Below, in pieces: positions 1,598 through 58,602 of a DNA stretch of 64,000 nt; the stretch's first letter is position 1, and every line of letters begins with the position of its first letter. Both the position numbers and the translations under genes were made by a program. The notes under the pieces are model-generated. The model worked only from the letters and a program-made list of their open reading frames with translations. It did not search any database and was not told the origin of the DNA. The stretch comes from an uncultured Eubacteriales bacterium (GTDB lineage: Bacteria > Bacillota > Clostridia > Oscillospirales > Acutalibacteraceae), in NCBI GenBank assembly GCA_964369415.1, contig CAYJFP010000003.1, forward strand, positions 31,782-95,781, written 5' to 3'.

Positions 1598-2791
1598 TTA
1601 GGCATCGTCTTTTGTAATTTTCATAAGTACGAATTCAAAGTTATACTTTGAGTTATTTGTATTTGCGTAAAAAAGACTTTGAAGGCGCTTAAGCACCATT
1701 CTTCCCACTTCATAATCTTCAATATTAGGAAGCAAAAGAGCAAACTGACTTGGGCTGTATCTTGAAATTGTATCGCCACTTCTTAAATTAATTCTTAAAA
1801 GCTCTCTCAAATTTTTCATAGCAAAATCAAGCTCTAAAGACTCAATATCATCCACATTCATAGATTTAATGCTTACAATTCCTAAAAACATCTGCGTGCC
1901 AAATCTTTTTAAATTTCTCATATAAAGACGGTAAATATCTTTAAAAATCGTATATTCACACACAAATCCGCCCTTATCATCGTCACTTGCTTTAAGGTCT
2001 GTATAAATTTGTTCTATATTCGCCTCTGCTTTTTTCTCACTGTCCATGAGCTGTTTATAGAAATCTAAAATTTCATCTGAAGGCTTAACTCCAAGATGGG
2101 CATAATACAAGTCTGTAATATTCTGATACTGCACAAGAGCTTCTTTATGTTTACCAATTTTTAAAAGAGCCTGCATAAGCTCTATATTTAAAAGAACGTC
2201 AAAGACATCAATCTCAAGTGCAATTTTACAAATTCTTATTACCTCTCCATAGTCCTCTTGTTCGTTCAAAAGTCTTATATACTGATAAACTGTTCTTAGA
2301 TATAAATTATGATAATAATACGACTTAGGCGCTAACCATGAATTAATACTTGAATCAACAAACAAATCATCATTGTACATGAATAAAACTTCATCGAATT
2401 TCTCTTTAGCGTCTCTATTAAGCTCACTGGTGCTTTCAAGATCTTTACAAATGTCGTCAAGTTTGAAAATGTCAATTTCACAATCCAAATTTGGATTCCA
2501 CATGTAAGCGCCACGTTTTGTGACTATAGCGTCTTCAAGTCCGCACTGGCTAAGGTCCTTTCTAAGCCTACTGACAAGAGTCTTCAGTGTATTTTCCAAA
2601 TTCAAACTATCGTCTCCGTCCCAAAGGACTTCTATTATACGACCAACTGAAACTGGACGATTCTTATTTATTATTAAACATTCAAGTAATAAAAGTTTTT
2701 TTGGCGATTGCTTAAATCTTTTTGCTATGTCTTCGCCATTTACAATTATTCTCATTTCGCCTAATGTATATATATTAACCTTGTTTTGCAT
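1598..2791 (-). CDS. SARP-like activator (OmpR/PhoB-type wHTH + BTAD) with C-terminal degenerate GGDEF-like domain
   Basis: wHTH: TLKTLVSRLRKDL...VTKRGAYMW. BTAD-like helical region ending HLGVKPSDEILDFYKQL. C-terminus reads RSGDTISRYSPSQFALLLP where GGDEF domains read RxxD-x5-GGDEF. RBS GAAGGGAAG precedes the ATG. Confidence 0.7.
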   Translation of the reverse strand: MQNKVNIYTLGEMRIIVNGEDIAKRFKQSPKKLLLLECLIINKNRPVSVGRIIEVLWDGDDSLNLENTLKTLVSRLRKDLSQCGLEDAIVTKRGAYMWNPNLDCEIDIFKLDDICKDLESTSELNRDAKEKFDEVLFMYNDDLFVDSSINSWLAPKSYYYHNLYLRTVYQYIRLLNEQEDYGEVIRICKIALEIDVFDVLLNIELMQALLKIGKHKEALVQYQNITDLYYAHLGVKPSDEILDFYKQLMDSEKKAEANIEQIYTDLKASDDDKGGFVCEYTIFKDIYRLYMRNLKRFGTQMFLGIVSIKSMNVDDIESLELDFAMKNLRELLRINLRSGDTISRYSPSQFALLLPNIEDYEVGRMVLKRLQSLFYANTNNSKYNFEFVLMKITKDDA

Positions 2792-2817
2792 TTAAAAAGT
2801 TCTTCCCTTCAAATATA

Positions 2818-3978
2818 TCAAATAAAAGTATTCTCAATTCTAATTAATTTATAGCTGAAATTGTAATTTTTATTAAATTCTTCCTCATAAAAATTACCTT
2901 TAAGTCTTTCCATAACAGTCCTACCAACTTCCTCATCGGCAGCAGATGGTAGTAACGCGGTAAACTGCGTCGCACTGTATCTTGAGATAGTATCTCCTGT
3001 TCTAAGTCTTTGAACCAAGACATCCTGCAATTTTTTCATAATTTCATTCATTCTTTCAGGATCACTATCCTCTTCACATTTCGGTGTAACACTGACAAGA
3101 ACCAAAAACATTGATTGACCCAGTCTTCCTAAGTTTCTCATATGTAAATAGTAAATCTCTTTAAAAAGTGAATATTCGCAAACAAATGCACCATTAATCT
3201 CTTCGTCTAACAATTCTTCATTTATTTTCTCTATAGTAACAGTCTCTCTACTCTTAATAATTTTATTGTAATAGCTTTTCATTTTATCGGTAGAATCGAC
3301 ATTGGCAGAATCTTTTTTAATAACTGTTACATCCACCTTATTCTCACCAAGCTTAATCAAGGCCATTACCATATCCATATTAAAACTCGACTCAGCACTA
3401 TATATATGAAGAACCGCCTCGCACACTCTTAAAACATCTTTATACAAGCCCTCTACTTTTAAGAAATCAACGTATTTTCTCATCAATTTTAAAAATAAAG
3501 TTCTATAGTACTCTCTTTTTTCTTCAACAAAACACGCCGACTCCTCATTGCTTAAGAGTTCACCTTTGTATAATTTCAATATTTTTTCAAATCTACGTTT
3601 AAGGCTATCTGTAAATAAGGTTTCAGTTTCTATCTTCTGTGCAATATCATCAAACTCATCTGTATCTATTGTACATATGTCTCTATTCCACAGATATGCT
3701 CCAGCACGAGTAATTATCGCCAACGGATACCCATTATCATCAAAAATTTTTCTAATTCTGCTAATTCCTGTTTTAATGGCACCTATTCCAAGAATGCTCT
3801 TATTTTCTCCCCATTCCACCTCTGACAATTCAGCAAGTGTAACCGGACCTTTTTTAAGAATTATATATTCTATAATACTCTTTCTCTTAAAAGGTGTCTT
3901 AAACTTAGAAGAAACATCTGCATTCTTTATTTCTATACTAAACTCGCCAAACAAGCATATATCCGCAACTTTACTCAC
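2818..3978 (-). CDS. SARP-like activator (wHTH + BTAD) with C-terminal degenerate GGDEF-like domain; paralogue of 1598-2791
   Basis: Same architecture, alignable over the full length. C-terminus RTGDTISRYSATQFTALLP. GTG start behind GAGGGAG. Only 26 nt separate it from the downstream paralogue, so the two are probably co-transcribed. Confidence 0.7.
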   Translation of the reverse strand: MSKVADICLFGEFSIEIKNADVSSKFKTPFKRKSIIEYIILKKGPVTLAELSEVEWGENKSILGIGAIKTGISRIRKIFDDNGYPLAIITRAGAYLWNRDICTIDTDEFDDIAQKIETETLFTDSLKRRFEKILKLYKGELLSNEESACFVEEKREYYRTLFLKLMRKYVDFLKVEGLYKDVLRVCEAVLHIYSAESSFNMDMVMALIKLGENKVDVTVIKKDSANVDSTDKMKSYYNKIIKSRETVTIEKINEELLDEEINGAFVCEYSLFKEIYYLHMRNLGRLGQSMFLVLVSVTPKCEEDSDPERMNEIMKKLQDVLVQRLRTGDTISRYSATQFTALLPSAADEEVGRTVMERLKGNFYEEEFNKNYNFSYKLIRIENTFI

Positions 3979-4055
3979 TTCAAATCTCCCTCAATAAATA
4001 TAATGTCGATGATTAATTGAATCAAATCTTTAATCCAAACTTACACATTTTCAAT

Positions 4056-4084
4056 ATTATACACTATTAAAGTTACATTTGCAA
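4056..4084 (-). promoter_or_regulatory. putative sigma-A promoter of the regulator pair
   Basis: On the minus strand: TTGCAA (4084-4079), 17-nt spacer, TATAAT (4061-4056). Confidence 0.45.
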
Positions 4085-4102
4085 TACATTTAGCATACAT
4101 TT
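4074..4102. repeat. three direct TACATTT heptamers at exact 11-bp phasing (candidate SARP operator)
   Basis: TACATTTgcaa TACATTTagca TACATTT, starting at 4074, 4085 and 4096. They overlap the -35 of the minus-strand promoter. Confidence 0.55.
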
Positions 4103-4149
4103 TAAAAATATATGCTGTAACTATTAAATAATTAATCTATAGATTTGGA

Positions 4150-4177
4150 TTGACACTTTAAATCTTTGTGCTATAAT
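4150..4177 (+). promoter_or_regulatory. putative sigma-A promoter (extended -10) of the lipoprotein/pilus-like operon
   Basis: TTGACA (4150-4155), 16-nt spacer ending TGc, TATAAT (4172-4177). Confidence 0.55.
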
Positions 4178-4266
4178 AGTATATAAGAAATTAAATGTTT
4201 ATTTTACTTCAGTTTTATTAATTGAATTTTTAAGTTTATGTATCTCACCTATATTGGGAGGCTGAT

Positions 4267-5250
4267 TTGGAAATGAAGTTTCGAGCTATAACATGCTTTA
4301 TCATAACTATAGCTTTAATATTTGTACTTATAGGATGCGACAGTGGTCTTACCCCTCCTTTGGGAAGTTCTTCCAGTAATAGTGGTAGTACTACCCCATC
4401 GGGACAGTCCGACCCTAATGCTCCTAAAGGTGATAGAGATCCTGTCGCAGTTGTTTTACCTACAACCGCCGATGGGATAAGTGCATATACTGGCAACGCT
4501 GCCATAATAGATACATCAAACACGGCTAACGGTTATTTTATGGTAAAGTACACTGGAAGCAAGGAAAAAATCAAAATGCAAGTTACCCACAACGGCGGTG
4601 AACCTTATACTTATGACCTCATCCCAGGCGGCGATTATGAAGTCTTTCCACTTGCACCTGGCAACGGCTCTTACACCGTTACTATAAATGAAAACATTGA
4701 GGGCACAAGTTATGCGGTTGTCGATACTCATTCGTTTGAAGTCACTCTTGAAGACGAGTTTCAGCCGTTTTTACACCCTAGTAAATATGTAAATTATACA
4801 GATAGCCCTAACACTGTTGCTTTAAGCGAAGATTTAGCCGACGGAGCTTTTAACGACCTAGATGTGGTCGAATCCGTTTACAATTATGTGACAAACAATG
4901 TTTCATACGACCATGATAGAGCAGCCACCACCACTACGTTTTATATCCCTGATATGGATGTAACTCTTTCGTCAAACGCAGGACTTTGTTTTGATTATGC
5001 CGGCCTTATGACCTCTATGTTAAGGGCACAAAGAATTCCAACACAGCTTGTAATCGGATATGCTGGCGATGTCTATCATGCTTGGATAAGCGTCTATACT
5101 CCTGAAACGGGGTGGGTTAAAGATATTATACAGTTCGACGGTGTTAACTGGGTTAGAATGGACCCTACATTTGCTTCTTCTGCTGGAGACCCAAGCATAG
5201 AACAGTACATCGGAGACGGTAAAAATTATAACGCTATGTTCTTTTACTAA
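4267..5250 (+). CDS. lipoprotein with transglutaminase-like cysteine-protease core
   Basis: Signal peptide plus lipobox VLIGC. S/T/P/G-rich linker. Cys-His-Asp triad context GLCFDYAG...VYHAWISV...WVRMDPT. Start is TTG 4267 or ATG 4273, behind GGGAGG. Confidence 0.8.
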   Translation: MEMKFRAITCFIITIALIFVLIGCDSGLTPPLGSSSSNSGSTTPSGQSDPNAPKGDRDPVAVVLPTTADGISAYTGNAAIIDTSNTANGYFMVKYTGSKEKIKMQVTHNGGEPYTYDLIPGGDYEVFPLAPGNGSYTVTINENIEGTSYAVVDTHSFEVTLEDEFQPFLHPSKYVNYTDSPNTVALSEDLADGAFNDLDVVESVYNYVTNNVSYDHDRAATTTTFYIPDMDVTLSSNAGLCFDYAGLMTSMLRAQRIPTQLVIGYAGDVYHAWISVYTPETGWVKDIIQFDGVNWVRMDPTFASSAGDPSIEQYIGDGKNYNAMFFY

Positions 5251-5266
5251 TTGAGAGGGTGATAAT

Positions 5267-6322
5267 ATGGATAAAAAAGTAAAAAAAGTTAAACAAATTA
5301 GTACACATGACCTTTGCTATCTATTTGAGCAACTGTCTATCTTTTCAAAAAGTGGAATTCCAACTTGGGAAAGTCTTTACATAATAAGTCTTAATGAGAA
5401 AAATTCTGGCAAGACAAATGTATTTTACAGACTTTATGAATTGGTGGCAGACGGAATGTTCTTCTCACTTGCTATGAAGGAGCTGGGCTGCTTCCCATCG
5501 TATGCAGTTAGCATGGTTGAAATGGCAGAGCAAACAGGTAAAACAGAAGATGTATTCATGACACTTCATACTTACTATAGCAACCGTGACATTCTTTCAA
5601 AAAATATTAGGTCAAGCGTTGTTTATCCGCTTTGTATGGCTGGCATGGTATTTGCTGTTGTATTTATTCTGTTAGTTCAGGTTATGCCGGTGTTTGAGCA
5701 GGTTTTTGAAGGCCTTGGCCTTGCTTTAAATCCCGTTTCGGTCGTTCTTTTGGGAATCGGACAAACGCTTAATACCTATGCCGTAGCAATTTTGGCTGTA
5801 GTTGCCGCTATAATCCTATTTTTTGTAGTTCTAAAATTTACAAGCGGTGGAAAAAAACTCTTACTTTCATTTTATGAAAAATTTCCACTTACACGCCGTT
5901 TGTCAGAATCTGAAAATATATCTAAGTTTGCTTTTTCAATGTCATTAATGATAGGAAGCGGACTTGATGCCATAAGTTCATTAGAGTTTGCCTCTATGAT
6001 TACACAGAGCAAATCCCTAAAAAAGAAAATTGCTTTGATTAAAGCCGATATTGAAAGCGGTACCAATCTTTCAGAAGCTATAATTTCAAGAAAAGTATTT
6101 TCTCCATTTTATAATGGTATTGTCATAGGCGGTGTGAGAAGTGGTGCAATAAGCGAGACTCTCATGACAATCGCCGACAGATATTCAAATGATACGCAAA
6201 AGCAAATTCAAAAAATTCTATCTATTATCGAGCCTTTAATGCTCGCCGTTTTATGCCTTACAGTAGGACTTGTAATGCTCTCTGTAATGCTTCCGCTAAC
6301 CGGAATTCTCTCTGGAATGTAA
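5267..6322 (+). CDS. type II secretion / type IV pilus platform protein, GspF/PilC family
   Basis: Two GspF-type repeats. Cytoplasmic helical bundles (FEQLSIFSKSGIP..., MVEMAEQTGK...) alternate with TM segments. RBS GAGAGGGTG. Confidence 0.85.
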   Translation: MDKKVKKVKQISTHDLCYLFEQLSIFSKSGIPTWESLYIISLNEKNSGKTNVFYRLYELVADGMFFSLAMKELGCFPSYAVSMVEMAEQTGKTEDVFMTLHTYYSNRDILSKNIRSSVVYPLCMAGMVFAVVFILLVQVMPVFEQVFEGLGLALNPVSVVLLGIGQTLNTYAVAILAVVAAIILFFVVLKFTSGGKKLLLSFYEKFPLTRRLSESENISKFAFSMSLMIGSGLDAISSLEFASMITQSKSLKKKIALIKADIESGTNLSEAIISRKVFSPFYNGIVIGGVRSGAISETLMTIADRYSNDTQKQIQKILSIIEPLMLAVLCLTVGLVMLSVMLPLTGILSGM

Positions 6323-6334
6323 AGAGGTGGTATT

Positions 6335-6670
6335 TTGAAAAACAGTGCTTTGCTTTTTAGATTAAAAAATTTAATTAAAAGTACGGCCCTTTGGTCTATA
6401 GTTTTATTTGTTTCTGTGCTTTTAATTTTAAGTTTAAGTGTCACAGATGTGTCTTCTACTGTCACAGATGAACAACAAGTTCTAATTGAAGACATAATTA
6501 GAAGAAGTGCCGTTCAGTGTTATGCTATAGAAGGCTCCTACCCTAGCGATCTTCAGTATCTTATAGATAATTATGGACTATATTATAATAAAGAAGATTT
6601 TGCCGTTCACTATAACAATGTCGGTGGTAATTTACTTCCTGAAATCAAGGTGTTTTATTTAAGCGAATAG
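6335..6670 (+). CDS. small N-terminally membrane-anchored protein of the pilus-like operon, function unknown
   Basis: Single N-terminal TM (ALWSIVLFVSVLLILSL) followed by a soluble domain of about 70 aa. TTG start behind AGAGGTGG, 13 nt after the GspF stop. Confidence 0.5.
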   Translation: MKNSALLFRLKNLIKSTALWSIVLFVSVLLILSLSVTDVSSTVTDEQQVLIEDIIRRSAVQCYAIEGSYPSDLQYLIDNYGLYYNKEDFAVHYNNVGGNLLPEIKVFYLSE

Positions 6671-6686
6671 TAAAAGGAGGAGAAGA

Positions 6687-7175
6687 ATGAGGCCAGCTAA
6701 AAAACATTCAGCTGAAATAATTTTTGTCTTAAGTCTGTTTTTAATATATACTTTTTGCGCTCTCCTTCTCTCAGTTATGGGGGCAAATGTATACTCTAAA
6801 AACGTTGATGACTCTGAAAAAAACTATAATATGAGAACTTCTCTTTTATACATAACCGAAAAAGTAAGGCAAAACGAGTCTATCGGAAATATATCTGTGG
6901 GAACAGCTCTTGGAAACGACGCTCTAGTTCTCTCTAGAACTATCGACGAGACCGTTTACAACACTTGGATTTACTTTGAAGATGGAAATCTTTGTGAGGT
7001 TATTGTTCCTTCTAACCTAGAGATAGTTCCAAATATGGGACAAAAAATTATGTCTGTTTCAGCTATGGAATTTGAAATTAACGATAGTCTTCTTTCTGTT
7101 ATAATTACTGATGAAAATCAAAATCAGTTTTCCTCTAATCTTTTCTTAGAATGTGAGGTGGCTGTAAATGACTGA
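6687..7175 (+). CDS. N-terminally anchored protein with TadE/pseudopilin-like N-terminus (recalls DUF4860)
   Basis: N-terminus KKHSAEIIFVLSLFLIY: basic residues, small residue, Glu, then a hydrophobic helix. Strong RBS AAAGGAGGAG. Confidence 0.5.
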   Translation: MRPAKKHSAEIIFVLSLFLIYTFCALLLSVMGANVYSKNVDDSEKNYNMRTSLLYITEKVRQNESIGNISVGTALGNDALVLSRTIDETVYNTWIYFEDGNLCEVIVPSNLEIVPNMGQKIMSVSAMEFEINDSLLSVIITDENQNQFSSNLFLECEVAVND

Positions 7176-7593
7176 AAACAAATCTAAAACCAAATATTTT
7201 TTAATTGAACTTATAGTTAACTGCATGTTTTTTGCAATTTCAGCTGCAATTTGTGCAAATGTTTTTGCCATAGGTCATGTCGAAAGTGAAGCGAGTAGGG
7301 ATTTATCTATCGCTACTGTCGAAACACAAAACATAGCGGAGATTGTAAAATATAGCGGTGGCGACATCACAAAAATTTCTGATTTACTGTCGGCTACTGT
7401 AGATAGTGAAAGTAATCTAAATATTTATTATGACGATAATTTTGTAAGGACTGATTCAAAACAAAATGCCGTATATACTATCTCACTTACATTTACAAAT
7501 GTAGATAATATCTTATATTCTCATATAGAAACAATTAAAGAATCTGAAAGTATCTTCGAGCTTAACTGCTCACTTTATACGCAAAATTTATGA
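7168..7593 (+). CDS. pseudopilin-like protein with degenerate class III signal
   Basis: KSKTKYFLIELIVNCMFFAISAAI resembles K-G|FTLIELIV but has Tyr where the -1 Gly is expected. The 8-nt overlap with the previous gene suggests translational coupling. Confidence 0.5.
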   Translation: MTENKSKTKYFLIELIVNCMFFAISAAICANVFAIGHVESEASRDLSIATVETQNIAEIVKYSGGDITKISDLLSATVDSESNLNIYYDDNFVRTDSKQNAVYTISLTFTNVDNILYSHIETIKESESIFELNCSLYTQNL

Positions 7594-7620
7594 TAAAATC
7601 TTATTTAAGGAGGTGAACAC

Positions 7621-8037
7621 ATGAAAGAAAATCATGCTAAAGCCGTCGTAAGTACTGGTATTGTCTCGCTTGTCACTTTTTTCACTGTTATGCTTCTAGC
7701 TTCGTTTTCCGTTTTGATTTTGATTAGTGCAAGGTCAGATGCAGAACTTTCGGGCAAAGCCGCTGATTCACTTAGTGAATACTATTTAGCAGATAGCAAG
7801 TCTGAAGAAAAGCTCGCTGAGCTTCAAAACCTGTGTTCAAACACCTCTTATGAGGAACTTGAATCTGTCCTTGTCCAAAACGGTTTTAACGTTTACACCC
7901 TTGATGGCTATGACGGATTAATAGTAAATTACGATACTGAAATCAGTGATTTAAAATATTTATCTGCTGAAATTTTTATCCCTGTCGCAGATAAAGATTC
8001 CCCTCAAAAAATAACTTGGAAAATTATTTTAACATAA
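7621..8037 (+). CDS. small N-terminally membrane-anchored protein of the pilus-like operon
   Basis: N-terminal TM (IVSLVTFFTVMLLASFSVLILIS) followed by a soluble domain. RBS AAGGAGGTG. Confidence 0.5.
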   Translation: MKENHAKAVVSTGIVSLVTFFTVMLLASFSVLILISARSDAELSGKAADSLSEYYLADSKSEEKLAELQNLCSNTSYEELESVLVQNGFNVYTLDGYDGLIVNYDTEISDLKYLSAEIFIPVADKDSPQKITWKIILT

Positions 8038-8079
8038 CAATAAAAATACATGCCGACAATCGGCGAAAGGAGCATTTTT

Positions 8080-9162
8080 GTGGAAATTATAGATTTGCTA
8101 AAAGAAATGGTTAATAAACATGCCTCTGACATTTTTATCATTGCGGGTAGACCCCTTAGTTTCAAGTTAAACCAAAGGATAGAAACTCTAAATGATACGG
8201 TGATTTTGCCGGCGGCCGCAGAGGAAATGATTGAAAGTGTGTACACTCTTTCAAAAAGAGACATTAGCCTCGTAAGAGACAAGGGTGATGATGACTTTTC
8301 ATTCGCTATAAAAGGCGTCTCTCGTTTTCGTATAAACACATATAAGCAAAGAGGTTCACTTGCCGCTGTTATTCGTGTTGTACCCTTTTCACTGCCTAAA
8401 CCTGAAGAAATTCATATTCCAACCGATATTTTAGAGCTTGGTAACAAGCAAAGAGGACTTGTGCTTGTAACAGGTTCATCTTGTAGCGGTAAAACCACTA
8501 CTCTTACTTGTATATTGGATGAAATAAATAAGACTAGGCCTGCGCACATCATCACTCTTGAAGACCCTATTGAGCATCTCCATTCTCATAAAACAAGTAT
8601 TATTAGCCAAAGAGAAATCACACTTGATACAGGCGATTATCCCGCCTCTTTAAGAGCAGCACTAAGGCAAAGCCCCGATGTTATCTTAATCGGTGAGCTT
8701 CGTGATCCTACCACGATCAACATTGCGCTTACGGCTTCTGAAACTGGCCACCTCGTGTTTTCTGCTCTTCATACACTCGGTGCAGCAAACTCTATAGATA
8801 GACTTGTCGACAGTTTCCCAGCTAACCAGCAACCACAAATCAGAATGCAACTTTCTATGGTTCTACAAACTGTTGTATGCCAGCAACTTGTTCCGACCGT
8901 CGATGGAAAAGTGCGTCCTGTCTTTGAAATTATGCATTGTAATAACGCTATAAGAACACTGATTCGTGACGGCAGAACTCACCAGATTAACTCTATCATC
9001 CAGTCTTCTTCAGCCGCTGGAATGATTACCATGGATTCTAGTCTTGCAAAACTTTATAAAGAAGGCATGATTACTAGAGATACCGCCTTAACTTACAGCC
9101 TTACTCCTGCTTTTCTTCTTCGCCAAATTGGAGAAGAACCACTTGCAATGGGAATACACTGA
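8080..9162 (+). CDS. pilT: PilT-family secretion ATPase (retraction-type hexameric motor)
   Basis: Walker A GSSCSGKTTTL, Walker B/Asp box ILIGELRD, His box GHLVFSALHT. PilT-specific AIRNLIRE-type motif AIRTLIRDGRTHQI. N-terminal ASDIFIIAG...FRINTYKQ. Start placed at GTG 8080 behind AAAGGAG; the ORF track starts at 8050. Confidence 0.85.
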   Translation: MEIIDLLKEMVNKHASDIFIIAGRPLSFKLNQRIETLNDTVILPAAAEEMIESVYTLSKRDISLVRDKGDDDFSFAIKGVSRFRINTYKQRGSLAAVIRVVPFSLPKPEEIHIPTDILELGNKQRGLVLVTGSSCSGKTTTLTCILDEINKTRPAHIITLEDPIEHLHSHKTSIISQREITLDTGDYPASLRAALRQSPDVILIGELRDPTTINIALTASETGHLVFSALHTLGAANSIDRLVDSFPANQQPQIRMQLSMVLQTVVCQQLVPTVDGKVRPVFEIMHCNNAIRTLIRDGRTHQINSIIQSSSAAGMITMDSSLAKLYKEGMITRDTALTYSLTPAFLLRQIGEEPLAMGIH

Positions 9163-9220
9163 TTTATATTTTGTCTTTAAACATGAATCTATAGACACTA
9201 GTCTATTATTTACAAAATAG

Positions 9221-9256
9221 AAAACGGAGATGTGAAAGTCACATCTCCGTTTTCTA
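9221..9256. terminator. bidirectional intrinsic terminator
   Basis: 12-bp stem ACGGAGATGTGA/TCACATCTCCGT flanked by AAA on the 5' side and TTTCTATTTT on the 3' side. Confidence 0.75.
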
Positions 9257-9259
9257 TTT

Positions 9260-10060
9260 TCACTCTGCAAATTCTATATTAATTTCGCCGTTCACTGTAT
9301 TTGCCTCCATGCTTTTTTCCCTATCAGACATATTAATGTCTTCTAAGTTATTAGAGCCATTTACCGTGCTTGAACTTACGTTGTACTCGTTTTTGTCGCC
9401 CAAAATATTTCCGCTTATCTCTCCATTCAGGGTTTCAAAATCCATTTCATCTGAAACTAAATCCTGAATCTCAATTTCTCCATTTACTGTTTTGGCACTT
9501 ACTTCTTTAAGTGAAGAATTTTCCAAAGTAATTTCACCGTTAATATTTTCCAATTTTGTTTTTTCTGAATCAGAATTTTTAATCACAATATCTCCGTTTG
9601 TAACAAAGATTTCAATTTCATCTGAACTCAAATCTGAAACAGTAATGTCACTGTTGACGCTTTCAATGAACAAATCACCTTTATAGTCTTTAGGAAGTAG
9701 CACTTCAACATCTGAACTGCCTAAAGAAATATAAAAAAGTCTCTCAAGCCAGTTATAGTCTTCCACTTTTTCTATAATTAAATCTTGCCCATCTTCAATT
9801 TCGTAGTATTCCTTTTCTCTTTCAGTATAATTAATATATATTTTATCATCATTAGAAACGCCAATCACTATATTTGAACTTATGTCGTCAATCACTATGT
9901 CTTTATTTTCACTCTCAAGCACTATGCTTTTTTCTTCAAACGTACCGCTAGTGTTGAACAAACTCATAAAGTCATAGCCCAAAAACATCATTGCGATATT
10001 ATAAAGTATGATTCCGACACCTATCAAAACTGCGCCTAAAATTATAATTTTATTTTTCAT
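9260..10060 (-). CDS. membrane-anchored beta-repeat protein (DUF4097-like putative adhesin fold)
   Basis: N-terminal TM, then repetitive short beta-strand units (GDIVIKN, GEITLEN, GEIEIQD, GEISGNI, GEINIEF). ATG 10060 behind GAGGGG. Confidence 0.7.
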   Translation of the reverse strand: MKNKIIILGAVLIGVGIILYNIAMMFLGYDFMSLFNTSGTFEEKSIVLESENKDIVIDDISSNIVIGVSNDDKIYINYTEREKEYYEIEDGQDLIIEKVEDYNWLERLFYISLGSSDVEVLLPKDYKGDLFIESVNSDITVSDLSSDEIEIFVTNGDIVIKNSDSEKTKLENINGEITLENSSLKEVSAKTVNGEIEIQDLVSDEMDFETLNGEISGNILGDKNEYNVSSSTVNGSNNLEDINMSDREKSMEANTVNGEINIEFAE

Positions 10061-10061
10061 C

Positions 10062-10658
10062 TTAACCCCTCGCTTTGTCTTTTTTTCTGAAAAAACTTCC
10101 AATCCACTTGAACATTCTCAACATTACTCTAAAAGAGAATTTTGTAAAGGTAATAAGTGGGAAAATGCTGACTAACAAGAGTCCTAAACTGGCGATTCCC
10201 ATTGCCATAAGCGCCAAACCTTGCGGAACTCCTATGTGGAACATATTGAATATTCCTTGTAAAATTCCAGCAAGTCCCGCTGTCGCAAAGACTAATTCCA
10301 CCGAAAATGCCATTAATAACATCGAACCTGCCAAGGCTACAACAGTGATTATCAATGCAAAAATTAAAGACGCTATCGTTAGCCAAAACGGCGAGGCTAA
10401 AATTATGAGAATAATCCATAAGACTTTATTTTTACTGCCCGACACCTTATTTATAACGGGAATGGTAAACTCTCCTTCGATGTCGCTTTCAATAGAGTTT
10501 ATATCCCCCATGTCCGAAACAGCTTCCTCTTCGCTCATGCCCGACTCTATCCTGTCGCTTATGCTCTCCTCGTAAAAGCTGAGTATTCTTTCAACCTCGC
10601 TATATGGCATGTGGCTTAATTTAGTTTTCAATTCTTCCATAAATTCATGTTTATTCAT
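10062..10658 (-). CDS. DUF1700-like membrane protein
   Basis: N-terminus HEFMEELKTKLSHMPYSEVERILSFYEESI followed by a polytopic C-terminus. The start overlaps the PadR stop. Confidence 0.7.
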   Translation of the reverse strand: MNKHEFMEELKTKLSHMPYSEVERILSFYEESISDRIESGMSEEEAVSDMGDINSIESDIEGEFTIPVINKVSGSKNKVLWIILIILASPFWLTIASLIFALIITVVALAGSMLLMAFSVELVFATAGLAGILQGIFNMFHIGVPQGLALMAMGIASLGLLLVSIFPLITFTKFSFRVMLRMFKWIGSFFRKKDKARG

Positions 10659-10986
10659 GAGTATTCCCTCCACTTTTTTCTATATCTTCTGCAATAAATT
10701 CGTAAACTTTCATTACCTCGGCCCAGTCTTCAATAAAATTTTGTGTTTGCTTTATCCCTTTTGAAGTAATTTTATAGTATTTTCTTAGTCTACTGTTGTG
10801 TTCTACCGTGTATACACTTAAAAATTCGCTTGCTTCAAGACGCTTTAAAATCGGATACAAAGTTGATTCTGAAACTTTAATATACTCAGAAATATCCTTT
10901 ATAAGCTGATATCCATAGGAATCACCCCTTGTAAGCAATTTTAAAACACACGCTTCAAGTAGGCCTCTTTTCATTTGGCTGTCCAA
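10651..10986 (-). CDS. PadR-family transcriptional regulator
   Basis: LLEACVLKLL..GDSYGYQLIKDI...STLYPILKRLE...RKYYKITSKG. Confidence 0.9.
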   Translation of the reverse strand: MDSQMKRGLLEACVLKLLTRGDSYGYQLIKDISEYIKVSESTLYPILKRLEASEFLSVYTVEHNSRLRKYYKITSKGIKQTQNFIEDWAEVMKVYEFIAEDIEKSGGNTHE

Positions 10987-18477: not shown

Positions 18478-19659
18478 ATGAATAAAACAAATTTCCCAGT
18501 TAAGGACACTATTTTTCAAAGCTCTTTAGCTGCTGCCTTCTTCTTTTCTATAGCGTTTACCGGCTACGGTACTGTCTATTTACAAGGTCTGGGCTTCGAG
18601 ACTTCTCAAATTGGAACTATTAATGCATGCGCAAATGTTATCTCTATATTTGCATGTATTTTTTTCGGTATAGTTAGCGACAAAATTAACTCCATAAAAA
18701 AAGTTCTCCTGTTCGCCACTTTGCTTTTCAGTGCACTTTATTCTGCCATACCGCTTTTACCTATAGACACTTCCTACACTTTTGTTATGTTTCTTTTGTA
18801 TTTTACACTTATCAACTGCTTCAAGGCACCTTTTGGCTCTTTGTGTGAAGGAATGCTTGCTAGGTCTTCGTATGATTTAAACTTAAACTATGGTTTTGTG
18901 CGCTCTTGGGGGTCTATTGGATATGCTGTTTCAGGCTTTATTCTTTCTTATATAGTAAGCACCTTTGGAATAAATACTTCATTTATAATAAATGCTATAA
19001 TTACAGTTCCTATTTTAGTTCTTATATCGTTTTCTTACGACCCTAAAGTCGAGAAAAAAACTAAGCACCAAAAAATCAGCATTAAGCCTTTATTTAAAAA
19101 CCTCCACTATGTTTTTTTCTTAGTCTTTACCTTCTTTTTATGGATGACGATTTCCTCTGACATAACTTTTGCCCCTTATTTCATGGAAGAAATCGGTGTT
19201 GCAAGCGATAATTTGGGTGTTTATCTGTCTATTAGAGCCTTGTTTGAAATCCCTATACTATTGTTAATTAACAAATTAAGAAGCAAAATTAATCTAAAAT
19301 ACATTTTAATGTTTTCTTCCTTTTTCTATGCCGTTCAATACTTTTTAATGGGTTTTTGGCCGACAACTTTAATGGATATTATCATCTTATCCGCCTTATC
19401 AGGTGTTGGAAGCGGACTTATGGTAGGTTCGGTTTCTTTATATGTACTTGAGCTTGCCCCGCCTGAACTTAGGGCATCGGCTCAAAGTGTTTATTCCTCT
19501 GTAGTTGCGGCTTCTGGCATACTTGGTAATCTACTGGGCGGTTATATCTACGAAATATTTAAAGGACGCATGTACTACATATTCCTTGGAGTAGTCGTCA
19601 CTTTAGGCGCTATACTATTTTTAGCTTCTAATTTTATTAAGAAAAAGGAACGAATTTAG
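18478..19659 (+). CDS. MFS transporter, paralogue of 17188-18408
   Basis: Alignable with the upstream gene over the full length (GIVSDKINSIKK, PELRASAQSVYSSVVAASGILGNLLGGYIY). Confidence 0.85.
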   Translation: MNKTNFPVKDTIFQSSLAAAFFFSIAFTGYGTVYLQGLGFETSQIGTINACANVISIFACIFFGIVSDKINSIKKVLLFATLLFSALYSAIPLLPIDTSYTFVMFLLYFTLINCFKAPFGSLCEGMLARSSYDLNLNYGFVRSWGSIGYAVSGFILSYIVSTFGINTSFIINAIITVPILVLISFSYDPKVEKKTKHQKISIKPLFKNLHYVFFLVFTFFLWMTISSDITFAPYFMEEIGVASDNLGVYLSIRALFEIPILLLINKLRSKINLKYILMFSSFFYAVQYFLMGFWPTTLMDIIILSALSGVGSGLMVGSVSLYVLELAPPELRASAQSVYSSVVAASGILGNLLGGYIYEIFKGRMYYIFLGVVVTLGAILFLASNFIKKKERI

Positions 19660-21011
19660 TTTACCACTCTTCCGCCTTCACCGCTTGTCACGATATATAT
19701 TTGCTCTTCCATGCCCGTGTTTGCATTTATATAGACCAGTACTTCTTGTCCCGTTTCCTTGTCTTTACACAAAAACTCATAGCTTAAAACTTCGCTTTCA
19801 CCCTCTGTCGGAACTATGGCAAGACCTGTTTCTACTATATCAAGCTTATCGCTTACAATTCCTTTTGCAGTCTCCTCGTCTATTTGAGGTGGCTGCATTT
19901 CTCTTTGCCTGTTGTTCATGAGAAATCCATCGCTCGAAAACTCCACCATGCCGCCTTCGGCAAGTTCTAAAGTCATTTTTATCAAATCGGGATAAATAGT
20001 CACGCCGTCTTGTACCGCATTAAAATTAATAGTACAAGTGTTGTCATTCATCACATAAAAACTTTCCTTAAGATTTTCATAGCCCATTTCAGTTAGATAA
20101 GATTGTGCACTATTTAGCGCCTCTTCATAGCTTAAATTGTTATCGGCGGTTTGATGAGCCTTTTTAAAATACAGCACTTCTCCCCCCATTTTTGTTATCC
20201 TAATCGAATTATCCTTTCCGCTTATTTGATACGATGATAAGTTTCCGTCATCTATATGCATAACGCTTAGATTCTCTATGGGGATTTCCAAAAATTCAGA
20301 CGCTTTTTGCAAGGCTTCTTGTTCGCTTATTTCAGTTTTCCCCTTTAGTGCCTCGGCTTCTCTTTTTTCTACATGGTCAGAATATGGTCCGTCGTAAGTC
20401 ATGGTAGGAAGTGCCGATAGTTCCTCTTCTAAGTCGTTTACCGAGTCGTCAAATACAGGAGTAGGCGGCAGATTCAGACTTTTATTTAAAACCTGTTCAG
20501 TCTCACTCATCCCAATATTTCCAAGTTCAAGCTCGCTTCTTATTTCTATAAAGCTGCTTTTAATCGCTTCTACATGCTGTTCTAAGACTGTGAAAATCTG
20601 ATAATCTTCATCGGATAAAGATTGTCCCGAGGCACTTTTATTTTCTATATAAGAACCAAAATCAGCTATAATCGAAAGACTTTTTTCTATAATTTCACTG
20701 TTATCATCTGAAAAAGGAAGGTAACTTAAGGCCGATTTTGCCCCGCCTCCTGCTTCTTTTAACACAGAAGATATAGCCACTTGTCCCGTAGGAGTCGAGA
20801 CGTATTTTGACTTATCTAGTGTAAGTTCTATGTCTTCGAGATATTCTGTCAAATCGCCTAAACTTCTCGTGTAGCTATAGCTAAGATTTTTTCTGTAATT
20901 TTCCGAAACAGAAAATAAATTCCAAATAAAAATACCAACTAAAGTTAAAACTATTACATGCAGTGAAACAATAATTAGTATAGCTCTCACCGAAAGATTT
21001 ACTTTTTTCAT
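19656..21011 (-). CDS. ypeB: germination protein YpeB-like (N-terminal anchor + PepSY-type domains)
   Basis: N-terminal TM. YpeB-like region (NYRKNLSYSYTRSLGDLTEYLEDIELTLDKSKY). C-terminal PepSY-like repeats. Confidence 0.7.
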   Translation of the reverse strand: MKKVNLSVRAILIIVSLHVIVLTLVGIFIWNLFSVSENYRKNLSYSYTRSLGDLTEYLEDIELTLDKSKYVSTPTGQVAISSVLKEAGGGAKSALSYLPFSDDNSEIIEKSLSIIADFGSYIENKSASGQSLSDEDYQIFTVLEQHVEAIKSSFIEIRSELELGNIGMSETEQVLNKSLNLPPTPVFDDSVNDLEEELSALPTMTYDGPYSDHVEKREAEALKGKTEISEQEALQKASEFLEIPIENLSVMHIDDGNLSSYQISGKDNSIRITKMGGEVLYFKKAHQTADNNLSYEEALNSAQSYLTEMGYENLKESFYVMNDNTCTINFNAVQDGVTIYPDLIKMTLELAEGGMVEFSSDGFLMNNRQREMQPPQIDEETAKGIVSDKLDIVETGLAIVPTEGESEVLSYEFLCKDKETGQEVLVYINANTGMEEQIYIVTSGEGGRVVN

Positions 21012-56895: not shown

Positions 56896-58602
56896 ATGGA
56901 TACCACATTTTATATAATTTCTGCTATGGTGCTTTGTGCACACTCATTTTTAAATTTTTTATTATGTAGCCGTTTAAGTAATGAAATGAGATTTAAGAAA
57001 ATTTCAATTTTATTTGCATGTATTGTTAACGGACTTTTATCTCCGTTTCTTCTAGCCACTCACTTTTCTAATCCTATTTTTTTCTATCTAATTTACTCAA
57101 GTCTTTTAATAATGGAGCTGTTTATTTTATTTAAAGGGCGGCTAACTGCAATAATCGGTATTGCAACGGGTTCACTGCTTCACTTATTTGTTTTAAGGGC
57201 GTTAATATTGGCAATTTTTGCTCTTATGAATAATACATCTATGTATCAAATCTCTATCGATACTGAACTTCTTACACTTATAAACATTTATTCCTTTGCT
57301 GCACAGCTTGTAACCTTAACAATGTTTATAACCTTAATCCCTCTTAAAATTCTTTTAAAAGTCATGTCTAACAAAAGCTTTTATACTGGACTTTTGGCTT
57401 TGGCATGTTTTCTTAATGTGTATTTAGTTTATAATTCTTTTATTTTCTTTGTGGATTATTATTCAGTGAATTTAATTGTACAAGAAATTGTAATTTCCCT
57501 ATTAACATTAAGCTTTTTTTACATCATGATGCTTCTTTTAATCAAAATTTTTAACCTTGATATATATAAAGAAAAAAACAAAGAACTTGAAGGACAAATT
57601 GACAAGGACAAAACTCTTACATCTGTAGTTTTTAATTTTGCTGAAATTATTTTCGAAGGAAACTGCACTAAAGATAAGATAACTAGGCTTTTGATAAATT
57701 CTACCGAAAGGCCTACAAACCATATAAACAGCCTTACTGAACTTCTTAAATCTCAAGTAGAAAACACCGTGCATCCTGATGATAAATACATTATTCTAGG
57801 CATTAACTCTGCTTCTATGATTTCTGATTTTGAAAATGGTAACACCGAGAGTATTTATGAATATCGAGCTAAAAAAATTGTTTCTTCTCCTGAAAATGCT
57901 GGCATTATAGTTAAAGAAGATGGCTTTTTATGGTACAGAATGCGCATAAACTTGAGTAAAAATGCAACTACATCCGACATAATTGCATTGTTTACAGTAG
58001 ATGAAATTGATGATGAGAAACAACTTGAACTTAAACTTAGAGAAAAAGCCGAAAGAGATCCTTTAACAGGCGCTTATAACAAAGAAACTTTTTCTTCAAA
58101 GGTAAACGACCTCTTAAAAGAAGGCATGGATGGCACTTTATATATGTTTGACCTTGATAATTTTAAAGGTATTAACGATAATATGGGGCATTCAGCTGGA
58201 GACGATGTACTTCGTGAAGTTTACGAAAAAGCAAGCTCTATATTTAGATCTCACGATTTAGTCGGCCGTGTTGGCGGAGATGAGTTTGTAGTATTTTTGC
58301 TTGGAAATACTAAAGAATCTTCAATTATCAAAAAAGCTACGCAAATATGTGAATCAATAAATAAGACATATTATGCCCAAAATGGTGTTAATATTGAGAT
58401 TTCAAGCAGTGTTGGAATCAGCGTAGCACCTAAAGATGGCAACGATTTTGAAACTTTGTTTAACGCTGCGGACCTTTCCATGTATCATTCAAAGAACAGC
58501 GGCAAAAACACCTATACAATTTATGATGTTAGCATTTCTTCAGGTTTTAAGCCACAAGAAAAAGAAGACTATATGAGAATTAGAAATCAACAAAATGATT
58601 AA
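56896..58602 (+). CDS. membrane-bound diguanylate cyclase (multi-TM sensor + GGDEF)
   Basis: About 6-7 N-terminal TM helices. DPLTGAYNK, FDLDNFKGINDNMGHSAGD, I-site RSHD, A-site RVGGDEFVVFL. Confidence 0.9.
   Translation: MDTTFYIISAMVLCAHSFLNFLLCSRLSNEMRFKKISILFACIVNGLLSPFLLATHFSNPIFFYLIYSSLLIMELFILFKGRLTAIIGIATGSLLHLFVLRALILAIFALMNNTSMYQISIDTELLTLINIYSFAAQLVTLTMFITLIPLKILLKVMSNKSFYTGLLALACFLNVYLVYNSFIFFVDYYSVNLIVQEIVISLLTLSFFYIMMLLLIKIFNLDIYKEKNKELEGQIDKDKTLTSVVFNFAEIIFEGNCTKDKITRLLINSTERPTNHINSLTELLKSQVENTVHPDDKYIILGINSASMISDFENGNTESIYEYRAKKIVSSPENAGIIVKEDGFLWYRMRINLSKNATTSDIIALFTVDEIDDEKQLELKLREKAERDPLTGAYNKETFSSKVNDLLKEGMDGTLYMFDLDNFKGINDNMGHSAGDDVLREVYEKASSIFRSHDLVGRVGGDEFVVFLLGNTKESSIIKKATQICESINKTYYAQNGVNIEISSSVGISVAPKDGNDFETLFNAADLSMYHSKNSGKNTYTIYDVSISSGFKPQEKEDYMRIRNQQND

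Follow-up and report, generated by a model that had tools for sequence, protein, structure and literature searches.

How could a type IV filament machine work with a PilT-type motor as its sole ATPase and with subunits most of which lack the signal for the prepilin peptidase? This question is raised by a cassette of seven genes, here called g1 to g7, in a 64,000-nucleotide stretch (the window) of contig CAYJFP010000003.1 from an uncultured Eubacteriales bacterium of the Acutalibacteraceae. Few prokaryotic nanomachines have been studied as well as the type IV filaments (T4F), whose census is regarded as nearly complete; it comprises type IVa pili (T4aP), type IVb pili (T4bP), Tad pili, MSH pili, type II secretion systems (T2SS), Com pili and the archaeal filaments. 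According to the textbook view a PilB-type assembly ATPase is required, and the subunits need a class III signal with glycine at position -1, Gly(-1), that is cleaved by PilD. The analysis described here suggests that the cassette is very probably an undescribed variant of the T4F superfamily and, as a more far-reaching and on balance still probable claim, that it encodes a distinct, uncatalogued machine which builds a short pseudopilus working together with an enzyme of the transglutaminase (TGase) fold. The cassette and its borders comprise the following features, in coordinates of the window:

4150-4177, + strand: operon promoter, TTGACA, 16 nt, TATAAT with a TG-extended -10, 12/12 consensus match
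4273-5250, + strand: g1, TGase-fold lipoprotein (PF01841 Transglut_core E=2.7e-18, lipobox LIGC)
5267-6322, + strand: g2, short PilC/GspF-type inner-membrane platform protein, 351 amino acids (T2SSF E=3.3e-38, two repeats)
6335-6670, + strand: g3, pilin-shaped protein, 111 amino acids, with non-canonical N-terminus (motif VQCYAxEGxYPPSLxYLxEHYGL; AlphaFold2 model)
6687-7175, + strand: g4, DUF4860 protein (PF16152 E=2.1e-27, 95.4 bits against a cut-off of 25)
7168-7593, + strand: g5, minor-pilin-like protein (N-terminus [KR]S[S/R/G/A] followed by [LY]FL[MI]EL, Glu at +5)
7621-8037, + strand: g6, candidate for a K-type/ComGG-like cap (basic leader, Gly13, hydrophobic stretch, no Glu5)
8050-9162, + strand: g7, PilT-family hexameric ATPase, sole ATPase of the locus (TIGR01420 PilT/PilU 390.9 bits against 319.1)
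9214-9260, no strand assigned: bidirectional intrinsic terminator with a perfect 22-bp stem, common to the cassette and a convergent DUF4097 gene

All seven open reading frames (ORFs) of the original prediction, which had been made from the letters of the window alone, are present on the + strand, where they span 4267-9162, and domain searches agree with its description of g1, g2, g4 and g7. The distances between successive genes are 16, 12, 16, -8, 27 and 12 nt, so that the predicted 8-nt overlap is found between g4 and g5, while the gaps, predicted as 13-42 nt, range from 12 to 27 nt. A GGAGG-like ribosome-binding site precedes each of g1 to g6. The operon is bounded by the predicted promoter, with all 12 consensus positions and the extended -10, and by the strong bidirectional terminator, first placed at 9221-9256 and here computed as 9214-9260. 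The terminator hairpin has a folding free energy of -31.2 kcal/mol (z = -10.5), which none of 200 shuffled sequences reached, and it carries an A-run on its upstream and a U-run on its downstream side, whereby it can terminate transcription in both directions.

Is such an arrangement found elsewhere? In a scan of one genome per species the platform subfamily was found in the genomes of at least 431 species, and the loci of the best 80 of these platform-bearing species were used for comparison (84 loci in all, 80 of them unique). The genes g1 to g6 are colinear on one strand in 75 of the 80 loci, and four of the five exceptions lie at contig ends. The cassette is therefore not a chance arrangement, and the neighborhood survey bears out that the genes form a conserved unit, with a g7-type PilT adjoining in 50 of the 80 loci (directly after g6 in 44, directly upstream of g1 in 3 and inverted downstream in 3). 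Platform identity across the cassette loci runs from 58% down to about 31%, and the order TGase, T2SSF, small protein, DUF4860, small protein, small protein, T2SSE is kept in three distant members, one of which is a Coriobacteriia genome with 34% platform identity. Among the matches listed the nearest relatives are uncultured Oscillospiraceae metagenome-assembled genomes (MAGs; 58% platform identity), the families and orders are Oscillospiraceae, Lachnospiraceae, Christensenellales, Defluviitaleaceae, Saccharofermentanales and Coriobacteriales, and the hosts are gut and digester anaerobes of two phyla, all of them monoderms. Cultured carriers include Blautia, Butyrivibrio, Lachnotalea, Youxingia, Lientehia and Dysosmobacter.

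Single loci depart from this layout. Two tandem TGase lipoprotein paralogs instead of one precede the platform gene in L013 (1396-3382) and L016 (1577-3565), and the DUF4860 ortholog of L001 (11472-12182) and L006 (9425-10072) has a C-terminal extension, bringing it to 215-236 amino acids as compared to the usual length of about 160. In L014 (9451-17047) g1, g2 and g3 are present and g4 to g7 were not detected in 7.6 kb of downstream sequence free of N runs; this cassette may be decayed or rearranged, or the MAG may have an assembly problem. L011, L013, L014 and L016 are labelled 'uncultured Bacteroides sp.', yet their cassettes are 45-47% identical to that of the window and group with Oscillospiraceae loci, and the taxonomy of these bins is probably wrong.

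Which parts of a T4F machine are recognizable? The two generic components, an ATPase of the PilB/PilT/GspE family and a platform of the PilC/GspF/TadB type, are both present. For g2, the predicted GspF/PilC platform, the T2SSF match is joined by an alignment of the family profile to residues 78-411 of Myxococcus xanthus PilC (3jc8, E=3e-65), and because this match begins at residue 78, g2 is without the first ~75 residues of PilC. Members of the subfamily are 345-365 amino acids long, and the list of homologs descends from 100% to about 28% identity before reaching the canonical 401-residue PilC. The protein stays below every named platform equivalog cut-off (GspF, PilC, ComGB); GspF is the top-scoring of these models with 180.6 bits against a cut-off of 424, and ComGB gives 106.4 bits against 240. 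The motor is of the PilT type, as had been proposed: g7 exceeds the curated cut-off of TIGR01420, matches T2SSE with E=4.5e-42 and has PilT 2ewv as its best solved relative (E=3e-90, 306 bits, where PilB and GspE reach about 85 bits). Fifty orthologs retain Walker A and B, the Asp and His boxes and the PilT-specific AIRNLIRE box, which reads AIRTLIRD in the window and AIRNMIRE in the family consensus; a tetracysteine or zinc-finger motif is absent. Models of the assembly ATPases stay below their cut-offs, with 135.4 of 300 bits for ComGA, 117.5 of 630 for GspE, 113 of 675 for PilB (TIGR02538) and 39.3 of 373 for TadA (TIGR03819). Judged by these matches, g7 is a genuine PilT-family enzyme and not one of the assembly type.

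The gene for g7 is the only one in the operon without a recognizable Shine-Dalgarno sequence (window positions 8030-8050 read CATAACAATAAAAATAC). Its translation may be coupled to that of g6, or may be deliberately low.

Could the missing parts be encoded nearby? The 64 kb of the window and the flanks of the 84 loci contain neither a second T2SSE ATPase nor a canonical class III signal peptide, and phmmer searches with PilD and ComC queries (E<=1) returned no peptidase A24 from the window or the 84 loci, which agrees with the earlier observation that the locus has no PilB/GspE/TadA-type ATPase, prepilin peptidase, PilMNO, secretin or TadZ. T4aP genes are linked to none of the 80 loci, the comEA, comEC and dprA families do not recur in the flanks, and pilin profiles identified no clear major pilin among g3 to g6. 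The known classes do not accommodate the cassette. For a T4aP, PilB scores as low as given above, there is one T2SSE-family ORF per locus and no other family recurs in the flanks; for a Com pilus, ComGA and ComGB are below their cut-offs and there are four subunits with non-canonical signals instead of five with class III signals. For a T2SS, GspE and GspF are below their cut-offs and no GspG, GspL, GspM or GspD-like protein was found, and for a Tad or Flp pilus the TadA score is low and no Flp-type motif was seen. The view that the locus matches no described type is thus upheld by the curated models for GspF, PilC, ComGB, ComGA, GspE, PilB and TadA, all of which it fails to reach. Targeted literature searches gave no description of the cassette and a literature search across about 8 million full texts gave no mention of DUF4860; the cassette is in no current catalogue or paper found. 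The 'generic' model of Denise et al. for the type IV filament superfamily (TFF) requires a recognizable major pilin (PMC6668835), and as the cassette has none, TFF censuses would have missed it.

Are the four small proteins pilins? AlphaFold2 models of g3 and g4 were examined, and both were searched with Foldseek. The most conserved and smallest of the four, g3, belongs to a family of 2269 clusters at 90% identity that has no Pfam domain and in which all names shown are 'hypothetical protein'. Its model (predicted local distance difference test, pLDDT, 86.5) consists of a helix of 64 residues (3-66), a short helix (73-79) and a beta-hairpin, and in Foldseek the full-length pilins PilA4 and PilE reach the best TM-scores, about 0.3, with no significant match. 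The N-terminus is polar for 15-20 residues and followed by one hydrophobic segment; it has no Gly(-1)/Glu5 signature, and the YPxxLxxL motif behind the long helix resembles GspG and ComGC. The g4 orthologs in L001-L004 are annotated as PF16152, and an exhaustive HMMER search found 2131 clusters at 50% identity in the DUF4860 family, where a word-indexed search had returned the query alone. The g4 model (pLDDT 95) has a helix of 57 residues (6-62) packed on an 8-strand sheet, and just two Foldseek matches exceed both TM 0.4 and probability 0.9, namely the minor pseudopilin complex XcpV/XcpW (5bw0) and TTHA1219 (5g23), a type IV-like pilin; no match has a significant E-value. A conserved His and, in 78 of 80 sequences, Asp or Glu at position 10 mark the start of the helix.

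The other two proteins are recognizable by their N-termini. Of the g5 sequences, 78 of 79 have Phe11 and Glu14, the latter corresponding to pilin position +5, and position -1 is occupied by Ser in 41%, Arg in 20%, Gly in 18% and Ala in 9%; the copy in the window reads KTK followed by YFLIELIV and has Lys at -1. In the Protein Data Bank (PDB), g5 weakly matches (E ~0.1) the N-terminal helix of pilins (PilE1, geopilin and PilA), and its recurrent weak NCBIfam matches are all to minor pilin or pseudopilin models (XpsI/GspI, ComGE, GspJ, PilV, ComGF). In g6, Gly13 is found in 79 of 79 sequences with Leu, Ile or Val at +5; the top recurrent weak NCBIfam match is ComGG (9 of 72 members), and PilX_N is matched in 4 of 72. 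No NCBIfam model recurs across family members of g3 and g4, and sequence-profile searches of the PDB returned nothing for g3, g4 and g6. For the tip complexes H-I-J-K and ComGD-GG, the rule is four pilins per operon, the last of which lacks Glu5 (PMC10790768). The genes g3 to g6 conform to it, being four in succession of which the final pilin-like one, g6, lacks Glu5 family-wide and is also the only one of the four with a conserved Gly(-1).

It had been predicted that no subunit carries a canonical signal, which holds for the copies in the window but not at the family level, where g5 shows F-L-x-E-L with Glu at +5 and Gly(-1) in 18% of its members and g6 an invariant Gly. No pilin model matched the small proteins significantly, but g3 and g4 are modelled confidently as pilin 'lollipops', g5 and g6 carry what by sequence are pilin-type N-termini, and the four appear as divergent pilins once their families are aligned or modelled. 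This pilin-likeness argues for a divergent T4F and not for a system outside the superfamily. Paralogy of g3 to g6 was considered as well and is unsupported, as hhalign found no relation among them.

Cys62 in the VQCYA motif of g3 is invariant, and Cys29 within the N-terminal helix of g5 is present in 77 of 79 sequences. Extracytoplasmic proteins of strict anaerobes do not usually have such a near-invariant single Cys, which is also noteworthy beside a Cys-dependent TGase-fold enzyme.

What is the role of the first gene, which always heads the cassette in the loci mapped? The start of g1 is most likely the ATG at 4273 behind GGGAGG and not the TTG at 4267, as judged from the sequence; starting at 4273 yields the lipobox LIGC, followed by a Ser/Gly/Pro-rich linker of about 40 amino acids. 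The predicted lipoprotein with a transglutaminase-like Cys-His-Asp core is recovered by PF01841 with 66.6 bits (cut-off 23), and none of the 80 orthologs has lost the catalytic Cys, His or Asp. Among solved structures, the putative cysteine protease 3isr (E=7e-6) and TgpA (6g49) come closest.

How might the cassette be regulated? Divergent from it lie two regulator genes, one of the Streptomyces antibiotic regulatory protein (SARP) type and one SARP-like, and, between these and the promoter, a series of repeats:

1598-2791, - strand: regA, SARP-type regulator with degenerate GGDEF domain (Trans_reg_C E=1.2e-11, BTAD E=4.1e-8; GGDEF E=1.1e-3, below gathering threshold)
2818-3978, - strand: regB, SARP-like paralog with degenerate GGDEF domain (BTAD E=1.6e-3, GGDEF E=8.7e-3, both below threshold)
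4075-4103, no strand assigned: candidate SARP operator, three ACATTT heptads starting at 4075, 4086 and 4097 with exact 11-bp phasing

Of the originally predicted divergent SARP-GGDEF regulators, RegA is confirmed by its Pfam domains, which show the SARP architecture (Trans_reg_C 45 bits against 26.2, BTAD 34.1 against 22.1), and the predicted phasing of the putative operator is seen in the 11-bp spacing of the heptads. RegB aligns with RegA orthologs; it reaches 19.3 bits for BTAD, below the cut-off, and has no winged-helix match. SARPs prefer phased heptads, and by analogy the ACATTT repeats are a candidate site for SARP binding; a related copy is found at 4045 and another, which overlaps the -35 box, at 4153. 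The GGDEF regions read RSGD-TISRY-SPSQF in RegA, where RxxD is kept and the GGDEF motif lost, and RTGD-TISRY-SATQF in RegB. RxxD is invariant in 26 of 26 regulator orthologs, five residues before S[PA][ST]Q[YF], which is the position of the I-site for cyclic di-GMP (c-di-GMP). A SARP-type regulator adjoins the cassette in 22 of the 80 loci, with tandem pairs also in L012 and L022. In 29 Lachnospiraceae-type loci an extracytoplasmic function (ECF) sigma factor precedes the cassette on the same strand instead, usually with a single-pass anti-sigma-like protein (no Pfam family) and a two-helix membrane GGDEF protein that reads GGNEF. This exchange of the active-site Asp for Asn is conserved in 18-19 of 21 copies (an example block is L024:5185-6985), and in 21 loci the ECF/GGNEF block and the cassette adjoin rpoB/rpoC. 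That the two layouts share one subfamily of degenerate GGDEF domains is rejected (blastp E=1.5).

The cassette had been called c-di-GMP-wired. In favor of this, GGDEF-type domains stand beside it in two unrelated layouts, but every one of them is catalytically degenerate, with no intact GG(D/E)EF of a diguanylate cyclase in the regulators of the window (SPSQF, SATQF) or in the Lachnospiraceae proteins (GGNEF). A link to c-di-GMP is a reasonable supposition, and nucleotide binding by these domains is suggested by their sequence. Within this genome neighborhood c-di-GMP may be made by a 568-amino-acid protein with a strong, apparently canonical GGDEF domain (56896-58602, + strand, E=4.5e-35). 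The leader between promoter and g1 is about 90 nt long; it has no Rfam match and no significant fold, by which a c-di-GMP riboswitch or other leader RNA is ruled out.

Downstream of the cassette without ATPase in L038 (11501-16668) lies a PilZ-like ORF (E=3.4e-4, just below the Pfam cut-off), together with two near-identical small membrane-protein ORFs of about 100-110 amino acids and a coiled-coil-rich surface protein of 1132 amino acids with a C-terminal membrane anchor.

How could these components act together? It could be imagined that envelope or second-messenger signals switch the operon on. In the lineage of the window the sensors would be SARP regulators whose degenerate GGDEF domain retains the I-site, and in Lachnospiraceae the ECF sigma/anti-sigma pair and the GGNEF membrane protein. 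The PilC-like truncated platform would dock the PilT-type hexamer, and g3 to g6 would build a short heteromeric pseudopilus, similar to the H-I-J-K or ComGD-GG tip complex and without a dedicated major pilin, in which g6 would be the Glu5-less cap, g5 and g4 intermediate subunits and g3 the likeliest repeating unit. Since strict Gly(-1) is lost in three of the four subunits, g3 to g5 probably escape the classical prepilin peptidase and stay membrane-anchored, and unprocessed anchored subunits favor a stub or piston over a long shed pilus. Such a stub would cross the thick wall and work with the membrane-tethered TGase-fold enzyme, which may cut or cross-link wall peptides or surface proteins, its flexible linker of about 40 residues allowing it to reach into the wall. 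The PilT-type motor would either be bidirectional, as CpaF is, or provide a pulling stroke alone. The expected outcome would be surface remodelling or adhesion as part of a sessile lifestyle.

Which known systems resemble such a machine? By analogy the cassette would work most like a Com pilus or a T2SS pseudopilus, with a motor of the T4aP retraction-module type. The Com (ComG) competence pilus of monoderms is a 'minimalistic' T4F (PMC10790768). Like the cassette it is found in monoderm hosts, is encoded by one compact operon, lacks PilMNO and secretin, and places behind the platform gene a series of small pilin-type genes that ends with one lacking Glu5. It differs in that ComGA stands at the start of the operon, whereas the PilT-type ATPase stands at the end of the cassette, and in having five pilin genes and not four; moreover, the cassette has no strict class III signal and no linked ComC/PilD, and adds an invariant TGase lipoprotein. 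The T2SS pseudopilus shares with the cassette the expected short, non-shed product on a GspF-type platform and the four-subunit set with a Glu5-less cap (GspH-I-J-K), and the XcpV/XcpW minor pseudopilin complex is the best structural neighbor of g4, at a non-significant E-value. However, the cassette has no GspE, GspG, GspL, GspM, GspC or secretin, its host is a monoderm, its motor is of the PilT type and its GspF score is far below 424.

The PilC-PilT module of T4aP is matched by a genuine PilT with AIRNLIRE box and by a platform whose nearest solved relative is PilC, and the fimU-pilVWXY1 operon by the combination of minor-pilin-like genes with a non-pilin extracytoplasmic protein. Unlike T4aP, the cassette lacks PilB, PilD, PilA and PilMNOP, its platform is without the ~75 N-terminal residues of PilC, its subunits are non-canonical, and its non-pilin partner is a small TGase lipoprotein instead of the PilY1 beta-propeller. 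The archaeal Bas system offers a precedent for a non-filament surface assembly organized by a T4F-derived ATPase, a platform and few small pilin-like proteins, and weak matches to BasE and BasC models appear among the cassette proteins. Bas is archaeal, though, and has a FlaI/PilB-type ATPase and PibD-processed subunits, with no detectable orthology. The T4P of Clostridioides difficile likewise represents a clostridial T4F-type locus tied to c-di-GMP signaling and a sessile lifestyle, but there a riboswitch controls a canonical PilA/B/C/D/M/N/O locus, while the cassette has no riboswitch, would rely on degenerate-GGDEF protein regulators and encodes a different machine.

How well does a pseudopilus with a TGase partner stand up? 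Several findings weigh against it. No pilin hidden Markov model (HMM) is significant for any member of the small-protein families and no Pfam pilin model recurs, the Foldseek E-values are non-significant for both models, and hhalign shows no relationship between any of the four small families. Processing by a peptidase from outside the locus would agree with the invariant Gly of g6 and with the small -1 residue seen in 68% of g5 sequences. All cassette-linked GGDEF domains are degenerate, those of the window scoring no higher than the Pfam thresholds. In 22 of the 80 loci, all of them with enough downstream sequence, the ATPase is missing (5 further loci could not be judged), and because of this it may be common to, or part of, another system. 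The description of the module as 'self-contained' is consequently unproven, given the unlinked ATPase and the hint at a peptidase elsewhere. Finally, PilT enzymes are known as disassembly motors, and we know of no precedent for an assembly machine with PilT only. The boldest form of the proposal, a T4F class without prepilin peptidase or PilB in which PilT and the truncated PilC drive a wall-spanning, major-pilin-less stub of four unprocessed pilin-like proteins that positions or actuates the TGase for covalent cross-linking or cleavage of wall peptides or surface proteins, as a c-di-GMP-responsive enzyme actuator of gut Clostridia and Coriobacteriia, must be regarded as speculative and is rather unlikely to be right in all its parts.

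Could the cassette instead serve a canonical T4aP encoded elsewhere, as an accessory or priming module in which g3 to g6 form an alternative minor-pilin initiation complex for a shared major pilin, the TGase sits at the tip like PilY1, g7 is an ordinary retraction ATPase and PilB and PilD are borrowed? The missing PilB, PilD and major pilin would be explained, as would the invariant Gly(-1) of g6 and the 22 of 80 loci in which no ATPase is linked. There are exactly four pilin-like genes with the last lacking Glu5, as in fimU-pilVWX or comGD-GG, and the minor-pilin operon of Pseudomonas aeruginosa also encodes a non-pilin protein, PilY1. As the main rival this possibility deserves attention but appears unlikely, as a dedicated platform would be superfluous for mere priming, g3, g4 and most g5 copies are without Gly(-1) and should not be cleaved by classical PilD, no T4aP gene is linked in the 80 loci, and the lipid-anchored g1 would be hard to seat at the tip of a long pilus. 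A further idea is that of a long, PilD-dependent adhesive pilus overlooked by the HMMs. Its major pilin would be g3, in highly divergent form, and the TGase would hydrolyze the wall to let the fiber pass through the peptidoglycan. That g3 is the smallest and most conserved of the set and has the GspG/ComGC-like YPxxLxxL after its long helix would suit a major pilin; c-di-GMP up-regulates adhesive T4P in C. difficile, and pseudomurein endoisopeptidases are among the TGase-fold enzymes. But g3 has no Gly(-1)/Glu5 and puts 15-20 polar residues ahead of its hydrophobic segment, Foldseek finds no significant pilin match for it, and an assembly-type ATPase is missing from the locus, which makes such a pilus improbable.

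A clostridial and coriobacterial counterpart of the Com (ComG) system, in which a short endopilus captures DNA for the PilT-type motor to draw across the wall, is more improbable still. The platform gene followed by small pilins parallels comGB-GC-GD-GE-(GF)-GG, with g5 weakly ComGE/GspI-like and g6 weakly ComGG-like, and the restriction to monoderms among the matches listed would fit. T4aP-mediated transformation moreover requires retraction ATPases (PMC6668835). Against this stand the ComGA and ComGB scores far under their cut-offs (135 of 300 and 106 of 240 bits), flanks in which comEA, comEC and dprA do not recur, and proteins in which no DNA-binding feature was identified. Nor, to our knowledge, do competence regulons include a TGase lipoprotein or regulators of the GGDEF and ECF sigma types. 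On balance, the short pseudopilus acting with the TGase-fold enzyme remains our favored reading of the locus.

Other origins of the cassette are rejected. A mobile element is contradicted by ordinary chromosomal flanks, by the conserved rpoB/rpoC site of the Lachnospiraceae copies and by a GC content matching the window (37.5% for the cassette, 35.7% for the window). An anti-phage defence system is rejected, as the PADLOC matches consist of a trivial P-loop match alone, and so is a sporulation channel similar to SpoIIIA, the cassette being present in non-sporulating Coriobacteriia and differing in gene content. Further features of the window are the following:

9260-10102, - strand: DUF4097 'toastrack' LiaG/LiaX-like protein, sharing the cassette terminator
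10062-10673, - strand: HAAS-domain membrane protein, in the convergent unit
10651-10986, - strand: PadR-like regulator, in the convergent unit
11048-11020, - strand: promoter, 12/12 match
19656-21011, - strand: YpeB spore-germination protein

The first three genes form an envelope-stress-type unit (9260-10986, - strand) that converges on the cassette. The YpeB ORF shows the source to be a spore former within the Clostridia. Of the other window genes that were tested, none has a connection with pili or competence.

What would such a machine mean? The cassette is widespread, being present in at least 431 species, and yet invisible to current models because its subunits match no pilin profile. 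It would challenge both textbook rules, the requirement for PilB and the Gly(-1) signal cleaved by PilD, and its PilT-only motor and peptidase-independent-looking subunits should interest the pilus field. A PilT-only machine would directly test the rotary models according to which PilB and PilT impose direction on PilC. For annotation, the cassette offers a first functional context for DUF4860 and three unannotated families, each with hundreds to thousands of members. For gut microbiology, it represents a candidate surface, adhesion or wall-remodelling system in dominant commensal families, which by its neighboring genes would be tied to c-di-GMP-type and ECF envelope signaling.

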